The notes below the pieces were generated by a model. That model was not told the DNA's origin and did no database searches. It saw only the letters and a program-made list of their open reading frames with translations. A stretch of 64,000 nucleotides of DNA from a virus. Its lineage: Duplodnaviria > Heunggongvirae > Uroviricota > Caudoviricetes. The position numbers and the translations under genes were made by a program. The stretch's first letter is position 1; the number at the start of each line of letters is the position of its first letter. Location: IMG/VR virus record IMGVR_UViG_3300021254_000030; one strand, 5' to 3'. Below are positions 1,428-52,027 of this stretch, piece after piece.

Positions 1428-1967
1428 TTATTCGTTCACAACTTCAATGCAACAAGATTTCATTACTTCAAGAGCCGCTTTATGTTTCTCGGGGGTGGTT
1501 CCCGCGCAGCAAGAGGCATCTACAATAATTGGAGTGTGAGGAAAAATTGTTCTAAGAATAAGAGCATTGGAAATAACACAAATGTCTGTACATACTCCAA
1601 CAATTTCAATAGAAGCAGGTGGAAATCTTTTAAAAGATAGAGGATCTTCCCAAAGAAGATGACCAAAACTATTCTTTTCTGTTATATTATCAGCAAAAGG
1701 AAAAAGAGTATCTACTATACACCATCCTGGAGTGCCTTTAATACAGTGCGGCGGGACTTTACTCATTTCAATATTTTCTGTTGGATTATCATCATCCCAA
1801 TCTCGCAAATAATGGCTATCTTGAGTAAAAACAATTCTATCTGTTAATAGATTATATTCTTTTTTAATTTTAGTTTCTATCTTGGATACAATTGCGCGGG
1901 CTTCAGGTGTTCCAAGATTACCTGTTACAAAATCGTTTTGCATATCAACTACAATAAGTGCTCTCAT
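1428..1967 (-). CDS. isochorismatase-family cysteine hydrolase (nicotinamidase PncA-like)
   Basis: N-terminal VVDMQNDF motif and conserved Cys (VGVCTDICV) typical of the isochorismatase/PncA fold. 179 aa. Confidence 0.7.
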   Translation of the reverse strand: MRALIVVDMQNDFVTGNLGTPEARAIVSKIETKIKKEYNLLTDRIVFTQDSHYLRDWDDDNPTENIEMSKVPPHCIKGTPGWCIVDTLFPFADNITEKNSFGHLLWEDPLSFKRFPPASIEIVGVCTDICVISNALILRTIFPHTPIIVDASCCAGTTPEKHKAALEVMKSCCIEVVNE

Positions 1968-2285: not shown

Positions 2286-2375
2286 TTTCCTATTGTTATT
2301 TTATTTTATAAATATATTATATAATAATTTTTTAAAGTTGACAACTTGATTTCATAGAGATTTTTTGTTATAATA
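2286..2375. promoter_or_regulatory. back-to-back divergent sigma70-like promoters
   Basis: Minus strand: TTGTCA-17 nt-TATAAT feeding the gene at 2274. Plus strand: TTGACA (2337-2342) ... TGTTATAAT (2365-2373) feeding the rightward block. Confidence 0.45.
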
Positions 2376-2568
2376 TAAAAAGAAAATAAAAGGAGATATG
2401 AGATGAGAGCAGTCGTATTAATAATAATAGATATAATGTTAGTGTATTGGTCAACGCTTCGCGTTGCCCAACTGGGTGCTTATTCAGCAAATTTGCACTT
2501 CGTGCAAATTCTGCTAAATGTCACCCAGGTAATAAATATAAAATAGAATAAATATAAGGGGGAATAGT

Positions 2569-2703
2569 ATGACAATAGTATGTGAATGTACTGCTTGTCC
2601 ATATAATAGAGGCCGCTTTTGTAGACATAGATTAGTATATATAAATGGAAATGGTGTTTGTAATAGATTAACAAAACCTAACTGGCGGGAGCCAGTTGAT
2701 TAG
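2569..2703 (+). CDS. small Cys-rich protein (DUF1540-like CECxxCxYN...C pattern)
   Basis: RBS AAGGGGGAATAGT before ATG at 2569. 44 aa, MTIVCECTACPYNRGRFCRH. Ends at TAG 2701-2703. Confidence 0.4.
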   Translation: MTIVCECTACPYNRGRFCRHRLVYINGNGVCNRLTKPNWREPVD

Positions 2704-2726
2704 AAATTTATGGAGGGGTATAGACC

Positions 2727-3197
2727 GTGTTAGTAGGAATCACAGGACATAGACCAGAAAGATTAGGAACTAATTGGCCAATAGTTGAAAGATGGATAGC
2801 AGGAAAATTAGGAGAGTATCAAAAGTCAGGAGAAAAAGTCAGTTTAATCACAGGCATGGCGCGCGGTACCGATCAAATTGCGGCAACTACTGCCATTGAT
2901 ATGGGGGTAGGGATAAGATGTTATTATCCTTTTCCGCATAAAATGAGTAATTTAGAAGATTATGTTATGACTCATGCGGAAGTCATTAGGTATGAGGCAA
3001 ATGAATATAGACCCAATGTGTATTTTACCAGGGACCGCCGCATTGTTGATGATTGTGATGTGCTTTTGGTTGTTTGGGATGGTGTTAAAATGGGGGGTAC
3101 TTATTATACTTATAAGTATGCTCTGGAAAAAGGTAAAAAGGTTGAAGTTTTTACGATACCTGTTGTTGGAAGTGATATAAATGGGAGGAAGTTATGA
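2727..3197 (+). CDS. SLOG-superfamily (DprA/Smf-LOG-like Rossmann) protein
   Basis: VGITGHRPERLG near the N-terminus and GMARGTDQIAA, which resembles the DprA/YpsA-type nucleotide-binding motif. 156 aa. Confidence 0.5.
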   Translation: MLVGITGHRPERLGTNWPIVERWIAGKLGEYQKSGEKVSLITGMARGTDQIAATTAIDMGVGIRCYYPFPHKMSNLEDYVMTHAEVIRYEANEYRPNVYFTRDRRIVDDCDVLLVVWDGVKMGGTYYTYKYALEKGKKVEVFTIPVVGSDINGRKL

Positions 3198-3407
3198 TAA
3201 TGCCTTTTGGTGCAATATTGGTTACAATGTTGGAATATGAAAGAACAAGAGAAAAAGAAGATGAGCGGGAAGCAGATGATGAGGAAGATGAGGAGTAGAG
3301 TTAATCTGGAAAAGGAGGGGCCGCCGCATGATTGTTGGAGTTTGGTTTAAAAATAAATAGTGGTGTGAGAAATGGTTTGCAGATTTTTTAAGTAAGATTG
3401 ATTAGGA

Positions 3408-11866: not shown

Positions 11867-11937
11867 GAGCAAAAAAATAGGGCCGGTATTTCTACCGACC
11901 CACACACAGAAAGGAGGACAAATAATAGTTAGTCAAG

Positions 11938-12010
11938 CGTGCCCGAGGGGGATTGAACCCCTGACCCTCTGTTTAACAGACAGATGCTCTACCAACTGAG
12001 CTACAGACAC
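11938..12010 (-). tRNA. tRNA-Asn (anticodon GTT)
   Basis: The reverse complement folds as a cloverleaf: acceptor GTGTCTG/CGGGCAC (two G-U pairs), D-arm GCTCAGTTGGTAGAGC, anticodon stem TCTGT/ACAGA with loop CTGTTAA, T-arm AGGGG TTCAATC CCCCT. No CCA encoded. Terminator hairpin downstream. Confidence 0.8.
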
Positions 12011-25798: not shown

Positions 25799-27055
25799 AT
25801 GGCTAAAAGAACATGTTAGAAATGCGGGCGAACTATGGAAGATTTAAAGTTTTATTCTTACCGTAATGGTGAAAAAACTTAGATGTGTAAATAGTGTTTA
25901 ACCATGCATGTAGATAATTTTGATCCAGATACCTTCTTATGGATTCTTTAGAAACTTGATGTGCCGTGGGTTCCTATTTTTTGGAATAAAATTAGAGACA
26001 GAGAATATGCAAAACATGGTAATAAGTTAAAAGGAACTTCTGTAATTGGTAAATATCTATCTCAAGTAAAATTAAAACAATATAAAGAATATACATGGGC
26101 AAGAAGCGAAGAATTACAAAAAATAGTTTCCCAAAACAAAAATGTTGATAAAGAGGCGGAACTCTTTCGTCAGGAACAATTAAAAAAACAATTTGAAAAT
26201 GGTGAAATTAACGAAGCACAGTATAGGACTTTAACTGGCTCTGATTTTCAAAAGGAAAATGAATATATTGTTTTACCAAAACCTCCTGAGCAAGATGCAA
26301 TAGGTAAAGATAATGCTTTTAATGAAAATGATTTCTTCCCCGAGGAAGAGTTGCCTGATCTAGCGGCAGACCTTACTTTAGAAGATAAAAAATATCTTGT
26401 TATGAAATGGGGTCGTACATACAAAATGAGTCAATTAATTGAATTATAGCAAAAATATGTTGAAATGACAAATTCTTTTGACATACAAGATGCAGATAGT
26501 AAAAATTCTTTAATTCTTATTTGTAAAACATATCTTAAAATGAACGAAGCCTTGGATTGCGGAGATGTAGAAGGATATGGTAAATATAGTAGAACCTATG
26601 ATATGTTAAGGAAGTCCGCCAAGTTTACCGCAGCGCAAAATAAAGAAGAAAAGGGTGATGTCGTTGATTCAGTTGGTGAATTAGTTGCCTTTTGTTAGAA
26701 AAATGGCGGAAGGATACCTAGGTTTTAGATTAAACAACCTGATGCTATTGATAAAATTATTGATGATTTAAAAGCATATAATAGAAGTCTTATTTATGAA
26801 GATTCTGCTCTTGCAAGACAGATTTAGGATTTTTTGAAACAAGCAAGAGCACAACAAATGAAAAAAGAAGATATTAAAACGGCTAAAGAACAAGGCTTTG
26901 ATGTACCTCAATTAACAGAAGAAGATACATTAGCTTATAAAGAGTTTTTAAGACAGTAGGCAAGTGAAACTGATAAAATTACAAGAGGCCAAAGAGACCT
27001 CACTAATCCTATTGATGATATGCTCTTTGATGATACGGGAGGGCATCAAGAATGA
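25799..27055 (+). CDS. putative terminase small subunit / zinc-ribbon DNA-binding protein (419 aa, about 10 TAG)
   Basis: N-terminal CQKCG...CKQC ribbon. Same frame as track ORFs 25961..26449 and 26465..26698. Sits immediately upstream of terL and overlaps its ATG (ATGA). Confidence 0.35.
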
Positions 27056-27297
27056 GTTTACAAACATTATTAGATAATTCTCTTGCTTATGAAGGTAAAA
27101 AACAAGGTATATCAGAATAGAGATTACTTTAGCAATTAGATAATATAAGAGATAAAATTGCTTTTTTTAGATAGTATCCTGATTTATTTATTGATTTTAT
27201 ACAAGGTCCAGAAGGTACTTTTAAATTTCTTTATTACCAGCGGATTTTCTTACGAATTGTTATGCGGCATCGGTATGTTTATGCGACATTCCCCCGT
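27052..27297 (+). CDS. terL: terminase large subunit, exon 1
   Basis: MSLQTLLDNS...PDLFIDFIQGPEGTFKFLYYQRIFLRIVMRHRYVYATFPR is a typical TerL N-terminus. The frame then breaks where the intron begins. The exact 5' splice site is not determined. Confidence 0.45.
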
Positions 27298-28170
27298 AGA
27301 ATATGTGCGGGGTGAGAATAGTAATATTCTCAAAGGAAACCTATTGAATTGCTGGGAAGTCCAGAACGGATTATCAGCAGCTAAGTTATTTATAAGGAGA
27401 TTTTTATGGAGAAGAGAATTAGCGATCTCTACCCTGATATTAAAGATTGTTATATTATTGATGACATGGGTAAAATTCGTAATATTAATACAGGAAATTA
27501 TATAAAAATAAATAAAAATCATAACGGTTATATGAGAGTAAGTTTAATGAAAAAAAGTGGAGGAACAACTTCTATTCAATATCATAGATTATTAATGATG
27601 TTATTTAAGCCAGTAAAAGGAATGGAAAAATTACAAATAAATCATATAGATGGCAATAAAGAAAATAATACATTAGATAACTTATAGTGGGTGACTCCCC
27701 AAGAAAATATACATCATGCAATTAAAACTGGATTAACTAATTTTTCATATTTACAGGGAGAAAAAACTAATTTTTCTCATTATACTGAAAAAGATGCAAA
27801 ATTAGTAATAGATTTATTAAAGAGTAATAAATATACTGATAAAGAAATTTCTAAAATTACTGGTTTTCCTGTAAGAAGTTTTATAGCTAAAATAAGACGT
27901 AAAGAAACTTGGACTTATCTTACTAAAGATATAGATACTCCGTTAGGAAAAGCGGAAAGAAAAACTTTTACTTATAAATAAAAAGTTCAACGACTATCTC
28001 AGAAGAGAGTAGAGGAAAAGTTTCCTCGAAGCGGTAGGCTCCTTTAGTTCCAAGCTAAAGGATGATGATATAGTCTAATCTCTATGGGAACATAGAGCAC
28101 ACTTATGTGAATATAATTTAACGAATTATATTAAATATAAATAGCATATTCAAAATCATTTCTTTCCATG
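27298..28170 (+). mobile_element. group I intron in terL carrying an HNH homing endonuclease ORF
   Basis: P-like AATTGCTGGGAAG (27347-27359), Q-like ATCAGCAGC, R element GTTCAACGACTA (27985-27996), S element GATATAGTC (28068-28076). TerL exon frames are interrupted exactly here. Boundaries approximate. Confidence 0.5.
27406..27981 (+). CDS. HNH homing endonuclease (intron-encoded), one in-frame TAG
   Basis: GYMRVSL...QYHRLLMMLF...INHIDGNKENN then NL-[TAG]-WVTPQENIHHA. The conserved NLEWVTPKEN-type motif is split by TAG at 27688-27690. Confidence 0.6.
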
Positions 28171-29637
28171 ATGGCGTTGATGATTAGATGCGTTCTTTAT
28201 CCTGGTGCCGATTTGTTTGTAACAACTGGAGGCAAAGAGCAAGCTGCTTCAATTACGGTAGCGAAAATAGAAGAAATTTGCCGTTTGATTCCCGCACTTG
28301 CAAATGAGATTAACTGGGAAAGAGGAAAAACTAAAAAATCAAGAGATGACGTAAATTATGTATTTAAAAATGGTTCAAGAATTAGTATCCTTGCCGCAAA
28401 AGAATCTTCAAGAGGACAAAGAAGAACTGGCGGAGTCATGGAAGAATGTGTATTAATTGATCAGACAATGTTGAATGAAGTTATTATTCCTACTACGAAC
28501 GTTAATAGACAACTTGCCGATGGAACCCGTGATAGTAAAGAAGTAGTTAATAAATCTCAGATTTACATTACTACTGCTGGATGGAAGAACTCCTTTGCCT
28601 ATGATAAACTTATTGAGCTATTGATAAGGAGTTTAATTTAGCCGGATGAAGTTATGATAATGGGAGGAACTTATGAAACTCCTATTTTAGAAGGACTATT
28701 AGATGAGGACTTCGTAGAACAATTAAAATTATCTGGCACTTTTAATGAGGATTCTTTTGATAGATAGTATAGATCGTTATGGAGCGGCGATGCTTAGAAC
28801 GCATTTTTCTCTTCTTAGACTTTTGATAAACATAGAGTATTGCGGCAGCCGGAAGGAGAATATAGCGGCAGGTCTAGTCGATCAGCGTATTATGTTTTAG
28901 GAGTTGACGTTGGACGTATAGGATGTACATCAGAAGTTATGGTATTTAAATGTACACCACAGCCGCAAGGTGCATCAATAAAATCATTAGTTAATCTTTA
29001 TACTTTTGAAGCATAGCACTTTTAGCAGCAAGCTATTCATATAAAGAAAATTTATTATAAGTATAAAGCAAGAAAGATAGCTTTGGATACAAACGGTTTA
29101 GGTATTGGTCTTTTAGACTTTATGGTGCTTGCTCAAGAAACAGATGATGGAGATTATCTTCCTCCTTTTGGAGTTTAGAATGATGATGAGGGAGTATATA
29201 AAAAAATTTTTAAAGGAGTAAGTTAGTATTAGAAAGACGCAATATTCCAGATAAAAGCTAACGCTCCAATAAATACAGAAGCATATTCTTATACTCAAAC
29301 TCAAATGTCCAGCGGGAAAATAAAATTTTTAATTGATTAGGCATAGGCAAAAGCTAAACTTATGTAGACACGAACCGGTCAAAATATGACAGTTGATAAA
29401 AGGAATGATTATCTTCGTCCTTTTGTTTTAACAACTATTTTAAGAGAACAAATGTTAAATTTAGTAGAAGATAACGAGGGAGTAAATATTATTTTAAAAC
29501 AAGATAGCCGCGGAATTAAAAAGGATAAATTTTCTGCTTTTGTTTATGGATTATATTATATAAAACAAGAGGAAGAACGTAGTAGAAAAAAGAAGAAGAG
29601 AGATTTAAGTAAAATGTGTTTATTTACTCCATTTTAA
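28171..29637 (+). CDS. terL: terminase large subunit, exon 2 (ATPase C-terminal part plus nuclease domain), many in-frame TAG
   Basis: ...NGSRISILAAKESSRGQRRTGGVMEECVLID... Track ORFs 28168..28641 and 29386..29637 share one frame with only TAG between them. Exon start approximate. Confidence 0.5.
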
Positions 29638-29723: not shown

Positions 29724-30083
29724 ATGAGATCTTCTCGTGCAGAAATAAAGATAGAATAGATTCTGCGATAGGCAGGATTAGATTTTAAGGAAGAATATAG
29801 TTTTCCTGATTTAATAGGACGAGGCGGGCATGCCTTACGTTTTGATTTTGCTGTGTTTAGTGATGATGAAGAACTTTGGTTTCTAATAGAATACCAAGGT
29901 ATTCAACATTATAAAGCAAAGAGTATTTTTGGCGGAATGTCTGGATTACATCAACAGCAATTTTATGATATGCAAAAAAGAGAATATTGTAAAAAACATG
30001 GTATCAAGTTAATTTTAATCCCTTATTGGGATGAATCTTTAATCAATTATGATTATATTATGAATTTAGTCGGAATAGGCTAG
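29724..30083 (+). CDS. PD-(D/E)xK-like (DUF559/Vsr-like) endonuclease-fold protein, 2 TAG
   Basis: RFDFAV...WFLIEYQGIQH...KREYCKKHGIKLILIPYW. RBS AAAGGAGATTATATTTTT. Confidence 0.4.
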
Positions 30084-30132
30084 TAAAAACAGGAGGCGGT
30101 AAAAATTGGTAAATAGAAAAGAAGAAATAAAG

Positions 30133-43088: not shown

Positions 43089-43117
43089 ATTTAGAGACAT
43101 AAGGAGGAAGATAAATA

Positions 43118-46100
43118 ATGGCTCAACAAGGAGGAAGAATTGATTTTCAAATTGGGTTTAAAGCCGATAAATCTGGTATTTAGGATTTAAAGAAATCTTT
43201 ACAATAGATACAAAAAATTAAACCTGCAAATTTCGATGGAACTAAAGAAGATTTGCGGGAAGTGAAAAGTGTTGCGGCGGATGTAGAATCTGCCTTAACA
43301 AAGGCTTTTAATCCTAATATTAATTCTATTAATTTAAAAACATTTGATAATGAATTAAAAACGTCAAAAAGATCAATTGACGATATATATGCCAGTTTTT
43401 CTAAGGCGGGCGCTCAAGGCTAGGTCGCATTTAGTCAAATGGCAAGATCTGTTTTAACTACTAATCAACAGTTAAAATAGACACATAGCTTAATTAACTA
43501 GATGGGAACCACAATGGTGAATACTGTTAAGTGGGGAATCGCATCTAGCGTAATGAATACTTTTACATCAAGTGTTCAAAGTGCTTTTAAATATGTTGAA
43601 AGTTTAGAGAAATCATTAACTAATATTAGAATTGTTACGGGTGATTCTCAAGAGAAGATGTAGCAATTTGCGGCGTCCGCTAATCGTGCTGCGCAGGAAC
43701 TAGGTCGTAGTACTATGGATTATAGCAAGGCCGCATTAACTTTCTACCAGCAAGGTTTGGATGAGGATGCTGTTTAGGCTAGAACACAGGCTGTATTAAA
43801 AGCGCAGAATATTACTGGCGCAGGGTCTGAGATGGCCGACTATATGACATCTGTATGGAATGGTTATAAAGTTGCCAACGAATAGGCGTAGCTCTATGTC
43901 GATAAACTGGCCGCAGTTGCAGATAGCAGCGCATCTGACATGAGTTAGTTAGCTGTTGCTATGTCTAAAGTTGCATCTACCGCAAGTACCTTGGGTGTTG
44001 ATGCAGACCAATTAAATGCTCAACTTGCTACTGTTATTGCTACTACGAGACAGGCTCCAGAGGCGGTCGGTACTGCTTTTAAAACTATTTATACTCGTAT
44101 GAATGATATAAAAGCTGGAACAGATGATGCATAGATTAGTTTAGGTAACTACTCAGGAAAAATGGCAGAATTAGGTTTTAATGTACTTGATGCTACAGGT
44201 CATTTAAGAGATACTGGGTAGGTTATGTAGGAAATAGGTTCCCGCTGGGATACTTTAACGAAAGAGCAACAAATCTATTTAGCTACCACTATGGGTGGTC
44301 AGAGACAAGTCAACCAGTTAATTGCTTTGTTTGATAACTGGACTACTTATAGCGAATTATTAAATACCTCTCTAGAATCTGAAGGTACTCTTGCACAGAA
44401 AAATTCTGTTTATCTTGAGTCTCTTGGTGCTAAGATGGAACAGCTAGGCGCTGCAGGAGAACGTGTTAAAGCTAGTTTAATTGATAGTGAAAGTTTTGGT
44501 AATGTTATTGATCTATTGACTACTGGGACTAATTTACTTGGTACTTTTATTTAGAGTATTGGCGGCGGTGGCGCTGCATTACTTGGATTAGGCGGTATCG
44601 CTACACAAGTGTTTGGCGGAGTAATTTCTAAAGAGATTAATACGGCTATTACTAATTTCCAAAATATGAGATTTAATATTGAGCAAGGCAAAAAAGAAAT
44701 GGCTTTAACTCAATAGTTTGGAGAATCTCAAGGTTATCAACAAGGTGCTATTAATGAGATGCTTGATGCTAAACGATAGATGCAAGAATTTTATTCTGTT
44801 ATGTCTGTTGAATAGCGTAAATCTTATAATGCTATTGTTGAACAAATCGGCGCTGCAAAAGAGCAAGTTATTTTAGAACAAGAAAAAGTTGATAGAGCAA
44901 AAGAATATGAAAGAGCTTTAACATAGGCTGGAAAAATAAATAAAACTGATTTTTAGGGACAGTAGGATTTAATTGCAGAAGATATAAAAACTATTATTAC
45001 TTCTATTGAATCTTTGCAGTAGGCTACTTCAAATGCTGATAAACTTGAATATTTTGATAGAATGATCGACCAGGTTGATCAATTAAAATTTAGCCTAGGC
45101 GATTTAAATGATAAAGATATTAATAAAGCCTTTTCAAATTTAGAAGATTTAAAACAAAGAAGAGAAAAACTTATTAATGATAGAAATGATGTAGCAGTAG
45201 TAGATTAGTTTGGCCAGCAAGAATATGATAATTATACCAAACAAATAGATGCTGTTGAAGAAAAAATTCAAAAAGCAGTAATTAATATAAAAAATGCTAT
45301 TTAGAGTGTTGCAAATCTTCATATAGATATGGAAGTTAATGAAGATAACGTGACTTAGGCACAAAAGAAATTAGAGGATTTAAAGAAAACTGCTGCTTAG
45401 GTTCAACAGCAAATGTCTCAAGGTCTTACTGTATCAAATATAGTACAAGGTATTGGTGCATTAGGTCAAGCAACATCAGCTTTAATGGCATTTGGAAATA
45501 GTATAAAAACTATTTTTGATGATAGTGTACCTCCAGCATAGAAATTCTTTAAAGTAATTTTAAGTGGTTCTTATGCTATTCCTACGCTAGTAACAAGTAT
45601 ACAAAAATTAAATACTATTACTAAAGCTGTGTCTGCGGCAACTATAAATGCTACAAAAATTCAAGCTGCTAAAAATGCTATTCAACAAGCCTAGGTTACA
45701 GTTGAACAGGAGGCTGCGGCTGCTAAAGGTGCAAATGCGGCAGCAGCTGGTGGAGAGGCTGCAGCTACAGCAGGAAGCACTGCGGCAACAGGAGCAGATA
45801 CCGTAGCGAAAGAAGCAGATAATGCGGTAACAACGCGATTAACAATTGCACAAGACGCATTAAACGCTGCAATGGCTGCAAATCCAATAGGATTGGCCTT
45901 AGCTGTTATGGCGGGGCTTGTCGTAGCTGTGACGGCAGCGACTGCCGCGTATGACCATTTCCATATGTCTACTGAGTAGGCAGGTTAGGCTATTGATAAT
46001 TTTAATCAAAAAGCAGAACAAACTAAAAATACTGTTAAGCAATATAATTCTGATTTATCTAATTTAGATAGCGCAAAAGATGAGTGGGAAAAGTTATCTA

Positions 46101-49100
46101 ACCGTGCGGGAAGTTATAATTCTACTATTGATAATTTAACCGAAGATGAGAAAGCGCGTTATTTTGAATTAAGTAATTTAATTGCTCAATATAATGAGGG
46201 TGCTGTTGCAGGTTATGATGAACAAGGCAATGCTATTATTGCTAATAATGATGCTCTAAAAGAGACTATTTAGTTATTAAAAGAAAAACGTCGAGCATAG
46301 TTAGATTCTACTTATGATAGTGAAGAGTTTAGAAACGCAGAAAAAGGTAAACAAGTTCTTTACGATAACGCAAAAGACAAAAAAGAATTGAATGAAGGCC
46401 TGCTTGAAGATACTACTTCACATTTAACTAATCAATTATAGGCAAGAGGTCGCTCATTAACCGCAGCATTTGAAACCGCAGATAAAGATACTCAAGAGCA
46501 ACTATCAGCATATAATGAGCAATTAACAGAAATTCTTGCTGGTGGAGCAAAATAGATCTTTGAGAAACGAGAATAGTTAATTAAAATTTTTGAGCAATTT
46601 CAAGATAAAGGTTTACTTCCAGCAGATTTTACAGTAGCTTCTATTAATGAATTAAAAACTTTTAATGATTCTATAAAAGATATAGAAGGTAATATAAGTG
46701 ATGCATAGAAATAGATAAAAAATCTTGAAAGACTTAATATTCAAGAAATTACCAATATACTTCAAACTTCTAATTATGACAAATATTATTCTTAGTTAGA
46801 AGCAGCAGGTAATCAAAATATAAATGCAATTATAGCCGCTTATGCATCAGGAATGGATTCTGTTGATGAAAATGGAATACGGCTTACATCAGAGGCGGCC
46901 GCCCAAAAAATAAATGATGATTTTCTTTCAGTCTTTTCTGAAACGTTAGGTAAAGTTGATGAAGATACTGGTGTATCAATTTATCAAGGTTTTCTTGATA
47001 AAATTGCTAATGACGAAAATTTACAAAAAAATAATTTTTCATCATTACAAGAAAAAAATGCTTATATAAAATAGCAATTAGAGAATTTCTTTAAAGAAAA
47101 TCAAGATATGTTAAAAGGATTTGAAGGAGCTTCAGATAAATCTAAAGAAGCTATTTAGAAACTTTTAGCGAACGCTTTTAATATTTAGGATATTAATATT
47201 GATTTTAATACGGGAAAAATAGAATCTATAGCTAATGAGCGAATGTCTGCTCTTCACGATAGAATTAAAGAAATAGTTTAGAACGAGCGAGGAAAAGGTG
47301 CTGCAGGGTTATCTAATGATATTATTTCTTCATTATTACCTTCTGATATAGATGAAGCGTAGTTTGATTATATAATAGAGAATTTTGAAAGATTTTATAA
47401 AAAAATAGGAGATGCAAAGAAGGCTCTTGAAGAAGCTACTTCTTAGTCTTTAACTACATCAAATCTTTCTTAGAACTTAGGCACTTTAGGTTTAGCGAGT
47501 CGACAAAATCAAGGCTAGAATTTATCTCAAAAATAGACTGATAGTTTATTGCAAGGATTAGAATAGTTAGGAAGAATTTATCCATAGCTAGATTAGGCAG
47601 CTAATATTTTAGCTCAAGATCAGCTCGCAGGTACAGCACAATATCAAGCAGCTTTACAAGATGTTAATAATACTTTAATATAGAGTACTCTTCATGCTAT
47701 AGAAATGGCAGATGATGGAGGGGAAGCAATAAAAACAGCTTATACTGAAGGTCTTTCTACTGCTGCACAAGCTATTGACGCTTTTGAAGCTGGTATTTTA
47801 ACATCTGGAGATAAAATAAACGAATCTTTAGCTTTTACTGCAACAAAATTATCTGAACTAGATGATTTATTAGGATACGGGGCTATTTCAGGAGAAACTT
47901 TTGGGGCTGCTTTACAATCAGTATCTGACACAGAAGCTGCATCTTATGGATTAAATATTGATGAATATTAGAGTTATGTTGATCTTCTTCGTGCCACTAA
48001 TGAAGAATATGCAAATAATGAATTTTTAGCAAGACAAGTTGCTATTGCTAATGAGAGAATTGCAAAAGGAACAGAAGACTTAATAGATAATTGGAAAGAT
48101 TGGAATGATGCTATTTCTGATTATATTAATTCAGGTGATGATGTTTTAGCATTAGCTGATGACTGGGGAGAGTTGAAAGAAGCTATTGCCAATACTTTTA
48201 ATATGTAGCCTGAAGCGGTAGATATGTTAGGCCCCAATTTTGTAGCAGACAACTGGGATAAAATTCAACAAGTTAAAGATGGTGTTGAAGGAGCCTGGGA
48301 AGAGTTAGATGCTTTAATGAGTCAAACTCTAGTTCTTAATGCTTATGGAGTCGCAGATTTTTCTGAATTAGATCAAAATATACAAGATGCTTATAATGCT
48401 ATACAAGAATTAGATGGAACTAACGTTTCTATCGTGGCGGGTATGGAAGGTACTGATGATATATTAAATGCTTTCCAAACGATTGCAGACGGAGCCCATT
48501 GGACATCATCTGAAGCACAAGCTGCTTTTAGCCAAATGGGATATAGTGTAGAAGTTCAAGAAAAGCCTGATGCAATGCATAGTCAGACTGAAGAGACTCA
48601 ATACTATGTACCACCTACTTACACAATGGAGTCAGTGCCTTTTACTTTAGGCCCTTTTGGAACAACGGGAAGTATATCTTATCCTACAATTTCTCAAGAA
48701 GCTCACTATGAATCTGCCGGGGGAGGAACAAAATAGAGTTATGAGCCTGGAGCTTATACTATAAAATCAGTAACTTCTAACGGTAAATCTTCTGGTGGTA
48801 AAATATCCCGGAAAACAGTCGGCAATCATGGAGGAGGAAAATCTTCTGGTGGCAAAGGCGGAAGAGGTAAAAAAGGAAAGGGAGGAAAAGGTAAGAAAGG
48901 TAAATCTTCTACTCCTAAAACTCCGAAAACTTAGAAGTCGGTAAAAGATACTCAAGATCGTTACCATGATGTTAATATAAAATTAAAAGATATTGATAAT
49001 GAATTATCAAAAGTCAATAAAGAACAAAGCAAATTAACGGGTCCAGAGTTATTAAAAAATCTTGAATAGCAACAAAAACTATTAGATAAACAAGTTGCTA

Positions 49101-52027
49101 CCTATAAAGAAAAATTAGAATTAGAAAAACAATAGAGGGATTAGGTACGAAATAGATTAGCTAAATAGGGAGTTACTTTTGATCCTAGTGGTAATATCGC
49201 TAACTATTCTAATGCTCTTTCAAAAGCACTTGCCGATTATAATGCCGTAATAGCTAAATATAATCAGATGAGTGCGGAAGATCAATAGAAGAACAAGAAT
49301 ATGTTAGATAATGCTAAATAGAAATATGAAACTATTAAAAAAGATATTTAGCGTTATGATAAAATTGTTTCAGAAGAAATTCCTGGTCTTGAAAAATCTG
49401 TACAAGAGGCAATTGATAAACAAACTGAAATTAATATTGAAAAATTTAAAATAAAAGTTGATTTATAGCTAGATTTGTCTGAAGCATAGCGTGAATTTAA
49501 TTAGTTCCAAAATAAAGTTAAAAAACAGTTAAGAGACGATGACGTATTAGGTCAGGCCAAGGCTTCATTTAAAAACTTATCTTCTTATTACAAGAACGGA
49601 TATGACGTTATACAAAGTTTAACAGACCAAGTTCGTAATACGTTAACAGAAATTAATCAAATTGATAGCAGAGGGTATTCTGCGGTATACGGTAACAATA
49701 AGGCGGCCGCCCTTGAAGATTTAAAAAACTATATGAAATAGTTAATGAGCAATCTTTAGGACGTAGAAGATATAGTCAATAATATTAAAAATTCTATTTT
49801 TGATGCTATTGATAAAGCACAAGAGGCTTTTGATGAACAATAGAAAGAATATGAACAAATTACAGATTTAATTGACCATAATAAACAGGTTGTTTAGCTG
49901 TTACGCGGAGATGATGCCTATAAAGAATTAGAAAAGTATTATAAGTTACAATAGACGAATAATAATAAAGAATTAGATTTCTTACGTCAACAAAAAGATT
50001 TATGGTACAGTCGTATGAAAGAATAGGAAGTTCGCATGAAACAACTTCCTGAAGATTCTAACGAATGGAAATAGGCAAATGATAGATTTAAAGAATATGA
50101 AAAACATTGGTTAGATTCTTTAGATTCTTTAAACGATAAAGTTGAAGATGCTATTGAAAATATTATTGATAAATATACCAATGCTATTGATAAAGCCTTT
50201 GATAAATTAGAAAATAAATTAACTAAAAATAAAGGTTTAGAAAATATTTCTGAAGAATGGGAATTAATTAATAAGCAGGCGGACATGTATTTAGATCAAG
50301 TAAATTCTATGTATGAAATAGATAAACTTGAAAATGCATATCGTGATGCTATTAAAGACAATGATGGTAATTTAAAGGCTCAGAAATCATTAAATAATAT
50401 GATGAATGAGCAATTAAAGTTTTTACGAGATAAAGATAAATTAACTCAATATGATGTTGATAGAGCAAACGCTTTATTACAAATTGAAATAAAACGTTTA
50501 GCATTATAGCAGCAAAGACAAAGTAAAACTAAGTTAAGACTAAGACGTGACGCGCAAGGTAACTATACTTATCAATATACTGCGGATGAGGAAGCTAGCC
50601 AACAGGCTCAGCAAGAACTAGCGGACGCTGAAAACAGTTTATATAATATGACTAAATAGGCTTATAAAAATAACCTAGATTCATATTATGATACAGTAGA
50701 GGATTGGCAAGATAAAGTCAAAGATGTTTATAAAGATACTACATTAACTGTTGATTAGCAGCAAAAGAAAGTTGCAATGCTAAATGAATATTACGGCGAC
50801 ATTATTAATGGTCTAACTCAGAATAATGAAGATTTAAAGAAATACATGATGGAAGATACATTTAATGAAATGGCTAAAATGTATGATACCAATGTTGATA
50901 ACTTTAAAGCTATGACACAGGCTGAGAAAGATATTATAATGAAAGATATGGTTCCTTACTGGAAATCTGGTATCCAAGAAATGGCGGACGTGGTTGCGAA
51001 ATCTGATGGCGGATTCTTACCAGTAACGAAAAATGCTTTCAAAGAATTAGATAATGCCACTAAAGAATATGTTAATTCCTTAGATGATATATAGGCGGCC
51101 GCGCAGGTTAATTTCGATGCTGTTGCTAATGGAGTGGATAACAATATCGCAAAAACTGAAAATCTTTTAGATACTAATAATAAATTAATAGATGGCTATG
51201 ATAAAGAATTAGACAGAGTGCAAGCCGTAATCAATGAAGTTCAAAATTTAGTAGATACTTATAAACTTGCTAAAGATGAGGCTCTTGAAGCAACAAATGC
51301 CGCATATAAATTCATCCAAGCCGATTCAAAAAAGACTAAAACAGAAGCAAATAATAATAATTATTATGGCGGCAGTGGTGGCAGCACGGGAGGAAATAGT
51401 GGAAGCTCTTCTTCTGGTAACGGGAATAGTACAAGTAGCAACGGAGGAAGTAAGGCTAATAATACTTCTTCAGCTTCAGGAAACAAAACAAATAGTAGTA
51501 ATAATTAGAATGTGCTGTTTAGCGGAGCAGGATCAAAGATTACAAATGGAACTATTTTTAAAGTGAATGACCCAGAAGATCAAGGTATTTTAGCAGGTTC
51601 CGCGGCGTTGTAGGAATTAAAGAAGAAAAAGAATAGCAATAAGATTTCTCTTGTTGATTTAAAGAGCGGAAAGATTTCTTCTTATGCTTCTGGCGGATAT
51701 ACTGGAGACTGGGGTAACGACGGAAGATTAGCAATTTTACATTAGAAAGAATTAGTTCTAAACAAAGATGATACTTAGAACATCTTATCTGCAATCCAAA
51801 TCGTTAATCATTTAGATGATATATTAAATAGTTTTAAAATTAATACAAATTAGCAAACAGGTCTTTTAAATGAATTTACTCGTCGTTCAAGTGAACAGGA
51901 CGGAATTGGTCAAAATATTATAATCAACGCTGATTTCCCGGCCGCAAAAGACCATATGTAGATTGAAGCTGCTTTTGATAATCTCATTAATCGAGCAAGT
52001 CAATTCGCTTTTAAAAATAGACGATAA
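43118..52027 (+). CDS. tape measure protein (about 2969 aa; on the order of 100 in-frame TAG, no TAA/TGA)
   Basis: Track ORFs 44291, 46853, 47705, 48224, 50285, 50777 and 51134 all sit in frame 2 with ATG 43118. Hand translation of 43118-46900 shows only TAG interruptions. Hydrophobic segment at about 45840-45960. G/S/N-rich tract 51361-51508. Ends TAA TAA at 52025. Confidence 0.6.

Follow-up and report, generated by a model that had tools for sequence, protein, structure and literature searches.

A group I intron with an HNH endonuclease gene in the P-loop codons of terL of a TAG-recoded phage

Group I introns of the phage IA2 type, such as those of SPO1 and of T4 td, have a core with P7.1/P7.2, peripheral hairpins that are typical of the class, and R and S sequences reading GUUCAACGACUA and GAUAUAGUC. 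In T4 td the endonuclease open reading frame (ORF) occupies a peripheral loop, that of P6a, and its ribosome-binding site lies in a stem. These features recur in the element described here, an intron in the gene for the large terminase subunit (terL) of a tailed phage (Caudoviricetes). The window, that is, the whole stretch of DNA analysed, comprises 64,000 nucleotides of IMG/VR record IMGVR_UViG_3300021254_000030; positions refer to it, and the intron, its gene and both exons lie on the + strand.

Several described systems share part of this arrangement. The terL of Bacillus megaterium phage Silence is interrupted by a group I intron (PMC4599081), and the Enterococcus phages EF1 and EF5 (MF001358) also have terL group I introns; EF1 terL, which belongs to the same YonF-type TerL family as that of the window (46% identity), lies in three pieces annotated with 'HNH homing endonuclease' and 'Phage intron'. 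In the Agate phages, a group I intron endonuclease contains in-frame reassigned stops, which its authors read as delaying endonuclease production to late infection (Borges et al., bioRxiv 10.1101/2021.08.26.457843). Phass-1, of the 'Caudoviricetes code 15 clade', has a genome of ~136 kb, TAG-rich late genes and a tape-measure gene of ~3000 codons (~3150 aa); no terL intron is reported for it, the word 'intron' occurring 0 times in the paper (PMC10607447).

Insertion point, ribozyme core and endonuclease gene

We read positions 27298-28143 as a mobile phage-type (IA2-like) group I intron of 846 nt, inserted in the Walker-A (P-loop) codons of terL between CGT (Arg82) and GCA (Ala83), and give this reading a probability of about 0.93. 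A preliminary description of the same DNA, made from its letters alone, had already proposed that terL is split by a group I intron, with the frame lost at about 27298 and resumed at about 28170 after 870 nt. The split and its upstream edge are borne out by the core fold, by matches to the two halves of the Rfam model and by seamless intron-less homologues: the exon 1 frame (...RHRYVYATFPR) stops with CGT at 27297 and is followed by sequence containing TAG and TGA. The downstream figures need correction, as the intron-less relatives place the start of exon 2 at 28144, 26 nt earlier, and the insert is 846 nt long. Aligning the spliced TerL to intron-less homologues, as that description had suggested, fixed the join: in the non-recoded, intron-less MT836163.1 (L001), window positions 27297 and 28144 meet gap-free at 2821 and 2822 (blastn), and 47 of 47 IMG/VR relatives that are uninterrupted at this site read FPRAYSKS, which also disposes of the possibility that the homologues might be naturally bipartite here. 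The intron-less allele of the L004/L005 type has the sequence TTCCCGCGTGCATATTCAAAATC. An exon 2 beginning with the ATG at 28168-70 was considered and rejected; it would remove nine residues, AYSKSFLSM (83-91), including the Walker-A Lys-Ser.

Deleting the insert restores an uninterrupted terL with the invariant P-loop FPR/AYSKS (a slash marks a junction). Exon 1 (27052-27297) has 82 codons with three in-frame TAG, ends TTC CCC CGT (FPR) and is collinear with L001 2576-2821; exon 2 (28144-29637) has 497 codons plus TAA with 12 in-frame TAG, begins GCA TAT TCA AAA TCA (AYSKS) and translates as AYSKSFLSMMALMIR... The joined product is 579 aa long. In sequence searches it shares 46% identity with the protein annotated as terminase large subunit in Enterococcus phage H1, with further matches to Geobacillus virus E3, SPbeta-type YonF proteins and Phass-1. 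Upstream lies a YonG-like gene with a YonG_N domain and downstream a portal gene (phrog_2739, 2e-73). A low-confidence AlphaFold model was made for the homologue P0001 (96% identity), which spans terL residues 1-292 and ends in a read-through tail of 18 residues; the best PDB fold matches of the model were T4 gp17, T7 and P74-26, large-terminase ATPases only. Homology, synteny and the ATPase fold of the model thus identify the interrupted gene as the large terminase subunit of the SPbeta YonF type. Searches of Pfam, NCBIfam and PDB sequences with the spliced TerL, including a 12-sequence profile against PDB, gave no match, so this TerL family is poorly represented in curated models.

The insert has a group I core from P3 to P8 with the P3/P7 pseudoknot. 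All of the sequence elements listed in the preliminary description are found: the R element GTTCAACGACTA at 27985-27996, which occurs a single time in the window (0.13 chance matches expected with up to one mismatch), the S element GATATAGTC at 28067-28075, and the P and Q elements AATTGCTGGGAA at 27347-58 and TTATCAGCAGC at 27371-81. We drew a 95-pair model on the window sequence, comprising P1, P2, P3, P4, P5, P6, P6a, P7, P7.1, P7.2, P8, P9, P9.1, P9.2 and P10, and counted pairs on a MAFFT alignment of the window with L077, L036 and L038. Standard pairs fill 92.5% of the 372 pair cells; if the 3' partners are slid 1-3 columns along the alignment, the share is 37-50%. In P2, P3, P5, P6a, P7.1, P7.2, P8, P9 and P9.1, 14 pairs are altered on both sides. 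The slid control is generous to the model, but these compensatory changes are genuine. Folding of the ORF-deleted intron gave a minimum free energy (MFE) structure of -91 kcal/mol (z -6.5) that recovers P1, P2, P4-P6a, P7.1, P7.2, P8 and P9-P9.2.

In P1 (27292-27312), exon CCCCGU (27292-97) pairs with GCGGGG (27307-12), all pairs being kept in 4/4 sequences. Among them is the U27297.G27307 wobble at the 5' splice site, also kept in all four, which serves as splice site only under the register that we favour below. The P1 loop (27299-27306, GAAUAUGU) is the guide sequence for P10, whose 3' strand GCAUAUUC (28144-28151) forms eight pairs with it, 100% paired in the four sequences with one U-A to U-G change in L077. 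P2 (27313-27332; 8 bp, GUAA loop) is 100% paired, has one compensatory pair relative to L036/L038 and is present in the MFE fold. The P3 strands, CCUAUUG (27340-27346) and CGGUAGG (28032-28038), form a helix that is 100% paired with two compensatory pairs. J3/4, P4 (UGCUGG with UCAGCA, the P and Q elements) and P5 (27347-27379) match the Rfam consensus AAUUGCGGGAAA...AAUCCGCAGC. P6 (3 bp) and the P6a 5' strand UUAUUUAUAAG (27380-27396) face 27971-27986, 100% paired with three compensatory pairs. P7 has six invariant pairs between GACUAU (27992-97), within the R element segment 27985-27997 that aligns to the Rfam consensus UCAaAGACUA, and AUAGUC (28070-75) in the S element; by analogy with Tetrahymena G264-C311, G27992-C28075 is the putative guanosine-binding pair. 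The hairpins P7.1 (27998-28007) and P7.2 (28012-28027) are both in the MFE fold, with two of the three pairs of alignment helix 10 compensatory, and P8 (28040-28062, 8 bp) is seen both in the pair count and in the MFE fold. P9 (28080-97), P9.1 (28098-109) and P9.2 (28110-32) correspond to alignment helices 14-17, with a C-G to U-A swap in P9.1 between the window and L077.

The search for Intron_gpI proposed in the preliminary description had a mixed outcome. With the whole 64-kb window against Rfam, at gathering score and E<=0.01, only a tRNA-Asn was reported and no Intron_gpI, but searching 27100-28400 alone returned two half matches, a 3' half at 27912-28097 (37.3 bits, E 1.3e-7; P7 5' strand, P3', P8, P7' and P9) and a 5' half at 27288-27493 (14.9 bits, E 0.67; P1-P6). 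The match falls into two halves because a 576-nt ORF separates the ribozyme halves. The ORF-less sister intron L036, at the identical site, scores 89 bits against the cut-off of 50.

This ORF, which the preliminary description had correctly placed in the intron loop, runs from 27406 to 27981 (191 codons plus TAA) within the P6a loop and is an I-HmuI-like HNH homing endonuclease gene. Its product contains HNH_3 (PF13392; 8e-9, 35.4 bits, cut-off 24.8) and NUMOD4 (PF07463; 1e-5, 25.8 bits, cut-off 23.4), matches phrog_59 at 2e-37, and aligns with I-HmuI (PDB 1U3E) at E 3.7e-12, with the catalytic His80 and the metal-ligand Asn101 on ...DHKDGN...KIN. The ribosome-binding site AAGGAG (27394-27399), 6 nt upstream of the ATG at 27406, lies half within the P6a stem, and the stop codon falls in the 3' strand of the same stem. 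As described before, a single in-frame TAG (27685-27687, codon 94) interrupts the conserved NL(E)WVTP motif (DNL-TAG-WVTPQEN, consensus DNL-x-WVT). Since codon 94 lies between the catalytic His80 and Asn101, termination there would yield an inactive stub; domains and catalytic residues together are found only with TAG94 read through, as the sequence would require for an active enzyme. All window-type copies whose sequence includes codon 94 (L069, L077, L087 and L089) keep the TAG, the sister L038 having GAG (Glu) there; the L038 gene has TAGs elsewhere, one of them where the window has GAA. The ORF is intact in all full-length copies and in the available parts of two truncated ones. The further proposal of an element adapted to its recoded surroundings is sensible, though weak, as neutral GAG-to-TAG drift is equally possible with one TAG in 191 codons.

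The 3' splice junction and rival readings

In nearly all group I introns the base before the 3' splice site is a G (omega-G), with rare natural exceptions, and a U.G wobble in P1 normally marks the 5' cleavage site. The sister intron follows both rules, reading CCCCGU/C GAAUAUGU GCGGGA ... AAAAAAUG/GCAUAUUCC: its 5' site has the U.G wobble, its last base is G and its P10 comprises 8 bp. In the window lineage, P1 and the guide sequence are those of the sister, but the 3' junction reads ...AAAUAUAAAUA G CAUAUUC, with one G where omega-G plus an exon G are needed. This irregularity, of which the preliminary description made no mention, was found in every copy that reaches the junction, and assembly error is ruled out by the same single G in independent JGI, ENA and Logan assemblies. 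The canonical pair of sites, after U27297 and after G28144, is out of frame, which leaves two options in frame: either the sites lie after U27297 and before G28144, so that the last intron base is A28143 and Ala83 is kept, or they lie after A27298 and before C28145, which keeps the terminal G with an A-U cleavage pair and changes Ala83 to Thr.

We think it probable, on frame and conservation, that the intron ends with A28143, as an omega-A in place of the near-universal G, and that G28144 is the first base of exon 2 rather than the terminal G. None of 153 relatives has Thr at residue 83 (151 have Ala, encoded by all four GCN codons, and 2 have Gly); the retained U.G wobble should determine where the first step occurs, as for the sister, which splices CGU/GCA; and MAFFT sets A28143 opposite the terminal G of the sister, a simple G-to-A transition. 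Two points weigh against it: the guanosine-binding pair G27992-C28075 is unaltered, so that a terminal A should dock poorly, and the adjacent G28144 could serve instead, giving a frameshifted mRNA. Shifting both sites of the same intron one base further 3', to after A27298 and after G28144 (register 27299-28144), would meet these points, as this register is in frame and G28144 would dock in the unaltered site. Here P1 (7 bp, CCCCGUA with UGCGGGG) and P10 (7 bp, CAUAUUC with GAAUAUG) would abut perfectly, the MFE fold draws the 7-bp P1, and the base after U27297, a C in the sister, is in the window lineage an A that can pair with U27306. Against this stand the absence of Thr at P-loop residue 83 among the 153 relatives, the U.G wobble still there one pair away, the use of CGU/GCA by a sister with the same P1 and guide sequence, and the need for two irregularities where omega-A needs one, and we therefore regard the shifted register as unlikely, if still a serious competitor. 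Raghavan et al. in 2007 reportedly described a natural, self-splicing group I intron without terminal G in Coxiella burnetii 23S rRNA. Both irregularities have natural precedents: a title cited in PMC5423948 speaks of a Coxiella rRNA intron that 'lacks the canonical omegaG', and tRNA introns of one reported class have a base other than U (C) at -1 (bioRxiv 10.1101/2020.01.27.920355), a point in favour of the shifted sites.

The same irregularity could indicate a decayed intron that mis-splices, for example at U27297 and G28144 with a frameshift and a stop after nine codons, leaving a terL pseudogene in a defective phage genome. The out-of-frame canonical pair and the one G fewer than in the sister would fit such decay. 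However, the same junction recurs in independently assembled terL alleles whose exons diverge by up to 12%, the ribozyme is 98-100% conserved among window-type copies, the HNH ORF and both exons are intact, terL is essential, and an ORF scan found the rest of the late operon intact; decay is hence very improbable. That there is no intron at all, with TerL made as two polypeptides or the insert being an intein or a free-standing endonuclease cassette, deserves next to no credence. Exon 2 does contain an ATG (28168) at which gene callers start proteins (P0087, P0090), but the break separates Arg82 from Ala83 within the P-loop, a product initiated at Met91 would be without AYSKS, stops in the terL frame within the insert are incompatible with an intein, 47 relatives are uninterrupted at exactly this point, and the insert has a complete group I core. 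What tempers the intron reading itself is that the covariation comes from just two intron lineages (four distinct sequences), that the structure was drawn from the window sequence, so the slid control flatters the model, that the window copy scores below the RF00028 gathering threshold of 50 bits, an operational cut-off that does not define the class biologically, and that the P0001 TerL model is of low confidence (pLDDT 59).

Taken as an intron with the favoured junction, the element would work as follows. The late terL transcript would fold into the core (P1-P2, the P3/P7 pseudoknot, P4-P6, P7.1/P7.2, P8 and P9-P9.2), free guanosine would attack after U27297 in the U.G wobble of P1, and the guide would hold exon 2 through P10 for ligation to ...FPR/AYSKS... 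and the 579-aa TerL. The P6a loop would encode an I-HmuI-like HNH nicking endonuclease with its Shine-Dalgarno sequence half buried in the stem. TAG94 would be readable only once a phage amber suppressor is active, and the full-length enzyme would thus be made late, like the products of other TAG-rich late genes. It could then cut intron-less terL alleles of co-infecting relatives, with repair copying the intron in.

Amber codons in the late genes

The window has 33% GC, and its + strand from ~24.6 to 58 kb is readable only with TAG as a sense codon, whereupon the late genes tile the strand and stop-to-stop ORFs reach 2970 codons with 81 TAGs. TAG positions were compared with their homologues. 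The 15 terL TAGs, set against non-recoded relatives, align with 186 E and 12 Q among 305 cells, and 429 TAG cells from six late genes give E.51, D.09, K.08, Q.08 and A.06. In the same comparison, genuine GAA/GAG codons have the same profile (E.51, D.10, Q.06), and CAA/CAG codons an unlike one (Q.51, K.14, E.09). Between the window and recoded relatives (76-99% TerL identity), 614 swaps of TAG are with GAA/GAG and 43 with CAA/CAG. The TAGs of Phass-1 terL served as a control and, in the same homologue set, align with Q 39 times and with E 5 times. Usage in the late genes is GAA 570, GAG 123 and TAG 196. Thus, TAG in this clade seems to behave as a glutamate codon, not a glutamine codon, judging from these alignments, and the earlier guess that TAG = E fits both the profiles and the swaps. 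TAG at Gln positions, the pattern of genetic code 15, is not what we find; TAG is a sense codon that aligns with Glu. The papers searched treat phage TAG reassignment as Gln, including that of Phass-1 (PMC10607447), and our literature search found no report of phage TAG = Glu.

A candidate decoder was located by walking left from the nicotinamidase gene in relatives. One relative, 92% identical, carries a cluster of 28 tRNAs that includes a single tRNA(CUA) (L257 4917-4993, - strand), whose D arm, with a GUC...GAC D stem and a long D loop, is shared among 71 tRNAs only by three tRNA-Glu; the Phass-1 suppressor is without this D stem. Whole-tRNA identity gave no isotype for the L257 suppressor, only the D-arm comparison being informative. 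No amber suppressor was found in the window, within 4 kb of terL in 60 relatives or up to 10 kb past the right end, and the search by leftmost gene gave one uninformative locus. It is tentatively proposed, at somewhat less than even odds for the combination, that this clade reassigned TAG to Glu via a tRNA(CUA) with a tRNA-Glu body and that the intron, resident in that code, splices with a terminal A.

Several neighbouring features were recorded in the course of this work. ORFs in the first ~24 kb are nearly free of in-frame TAG, which is frequent in the late structural block (24600-58000), a split like that described for other recoded phages. Judged by its size and position, the 2970-codon ORF with its 81 in-frame TAGs (43115-52027, + strand) is presumably the tape-measure gene. 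The window contains a single tRNA, a tRNA-Asn(GTT) at 11937-12010 (- strand). A gene at 1431-1967 (- strand) resembles nicotinamidase; in relatives such a gene lies ~7.5 kb from the ~28-tRNA cluster, just outside the left end of the window, as in Phass-1. In the cluster of one recoded relative, ARAGORN predicts a tRNA with the four-base anticodon 'tttg' (Lys or Gln; L176 18191-18262), which may be a tRNA-Gln(UUG) with an 8-nt loop.

Mobility and comparison with known systems

The same intron is present in six other assemblies, made from further samples and by further pipelines (L077, L087, L088, L089, L091 and L069, the last an identical 3-kb JGI contig). The intron is more conserved than the exons around it: L077 and the window share 98.8% identity in the intron, 94.7% in exon 1 and 88.3% in exon 2. 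It is missing from relatives with 92-95% TerL identity (L004, L005, L021, L022 and L039-41). Near-identical introns in more divergent terL alleles, together with close relatives that have none, suggest that the intron is mobile, presumably through cleavage and homing. A sister intron occupies the identical site in two more distant relatives, L036 (4259-4546) and L038 (4259-5124). L038 carries a homologous HNH gene in its P6a loop, while L036, otherwise the same intron, has a loop of a few nucleotides and no ORF; it has lost the endonuclease gene and retained the ribozyme. In L087 (ENA ERZ28612952), the ribozyme is 100% and the exons are 97.6-99.4% identical to those of the window, compared to 93.9% for the HNH ORF (35 differences in 576 nt, intact), so the endonuclease gene seems to evolve or recombine apart from its ribozyme. 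Pattern scans added little: a 3'-domain pattern in IMG/VR found just unrelated IA2 introns in other genes, CATATTC being matched by chance, and most metagenome matches to the 5'-junction pattern were chance ones in GC-rich DNA, the real ones being L072 and L077 only.

Within this family, terL is interrupted at at least 10 sites, at about residues 68, 83, 84, 113, 178, 197, 224, 292, 401 and 520 (loci L017, L018, L023, L034, L035, L039, L042, L043, L047, L050, L054, L058, L077 and L087). A second intron family lies 4 nt downstream of the window site (GCG U/AU) in L035, L023 and L042, with Rfam scores of 90 bits for L035 and 71.5 bits for L023. Close relatives (94-99% TerL identity) have a second terL intron at residue 292, which the window is without; it spans L077 ~2286-3248, L087 3664-4938 and L039 4877-5857 and carries a gene for a 251-aa HNH_3/NUMOD1/I-HmuI-like protein. 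Between terL and the portal gene, the window also has a free-standing endonuclease gene of 120 aa with four in-frame TAGs (29724-30086, + strand), matching phrog_9084 'homing endonuclease' (1.6e-26) and phrog_7140 'intron encoded nuclease'. This makes two selfish-nuclease genes at the terL locus.

These observations bear on how such genomes are read. Without splicing and TAG read-through, terL, a standard phylogenetic marker, is called as at least four fragments, as happens in public gene calls. In these gut and rumen phages, the YonF-type terL is a hot spot for introns, with several sites in or next to catalytic motifs, and lends itself to the study of competition among homing elements for an essential gene in nature. 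If TAG does stand for Glu, table 15 misplaces Gln at ~200 late-gene positions of this window alone where Glu is conserved, and one TerL family would include phages whose amber reassignments arose with different amino acids. The 3' junction, in turn, provides a simple, testable example of a naturally occurring group I intron for which either a terminal A is acceptable or a Watson-Crick pair serves as the cleavage site. As an intron, the element is textbook material for phage biology; what it adds lies in this irregular junction and in the evidence for amber as glutamate.

Compared with the described systems, the window intron resembles the SPO1 DNA-polymerase intron and its I-HmuI in the HNH protein, where the alignment includes both the His and the Asn, but unlike SPO1 and td it sits at the terL P-loop, has a sense TAG in its endonuclease gene and a 3' junction without the usual G/N. 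The Coxiella intron that lacks omega-G belongs to a bacterial rRNA and to another subgroup, and the terminal A of the window intron is deduced from frame and conservation. Phass-1 has the same TerL family (44.5% identity), and like the window clade it has TAG-rich late genes and a tRNA cluster with a tRNA(CUA) beside NAD-salvage genes, whereas its TAG aligns with Gln and that of the window clade with Glu. The Agate intron lies in an early gene of phages with TGA=Trp, in contrast to the window, where TAG is the reassigned codon and the intron lies in a TAG-rich late gene. In summary, terL introns with homing endonucleases are already known from Silence and EF1, and a recoded intron endonuclease is not new in kind; Silence, EF1 and EF5 use the standard code, unlike the TAG-recoded phage of the window.

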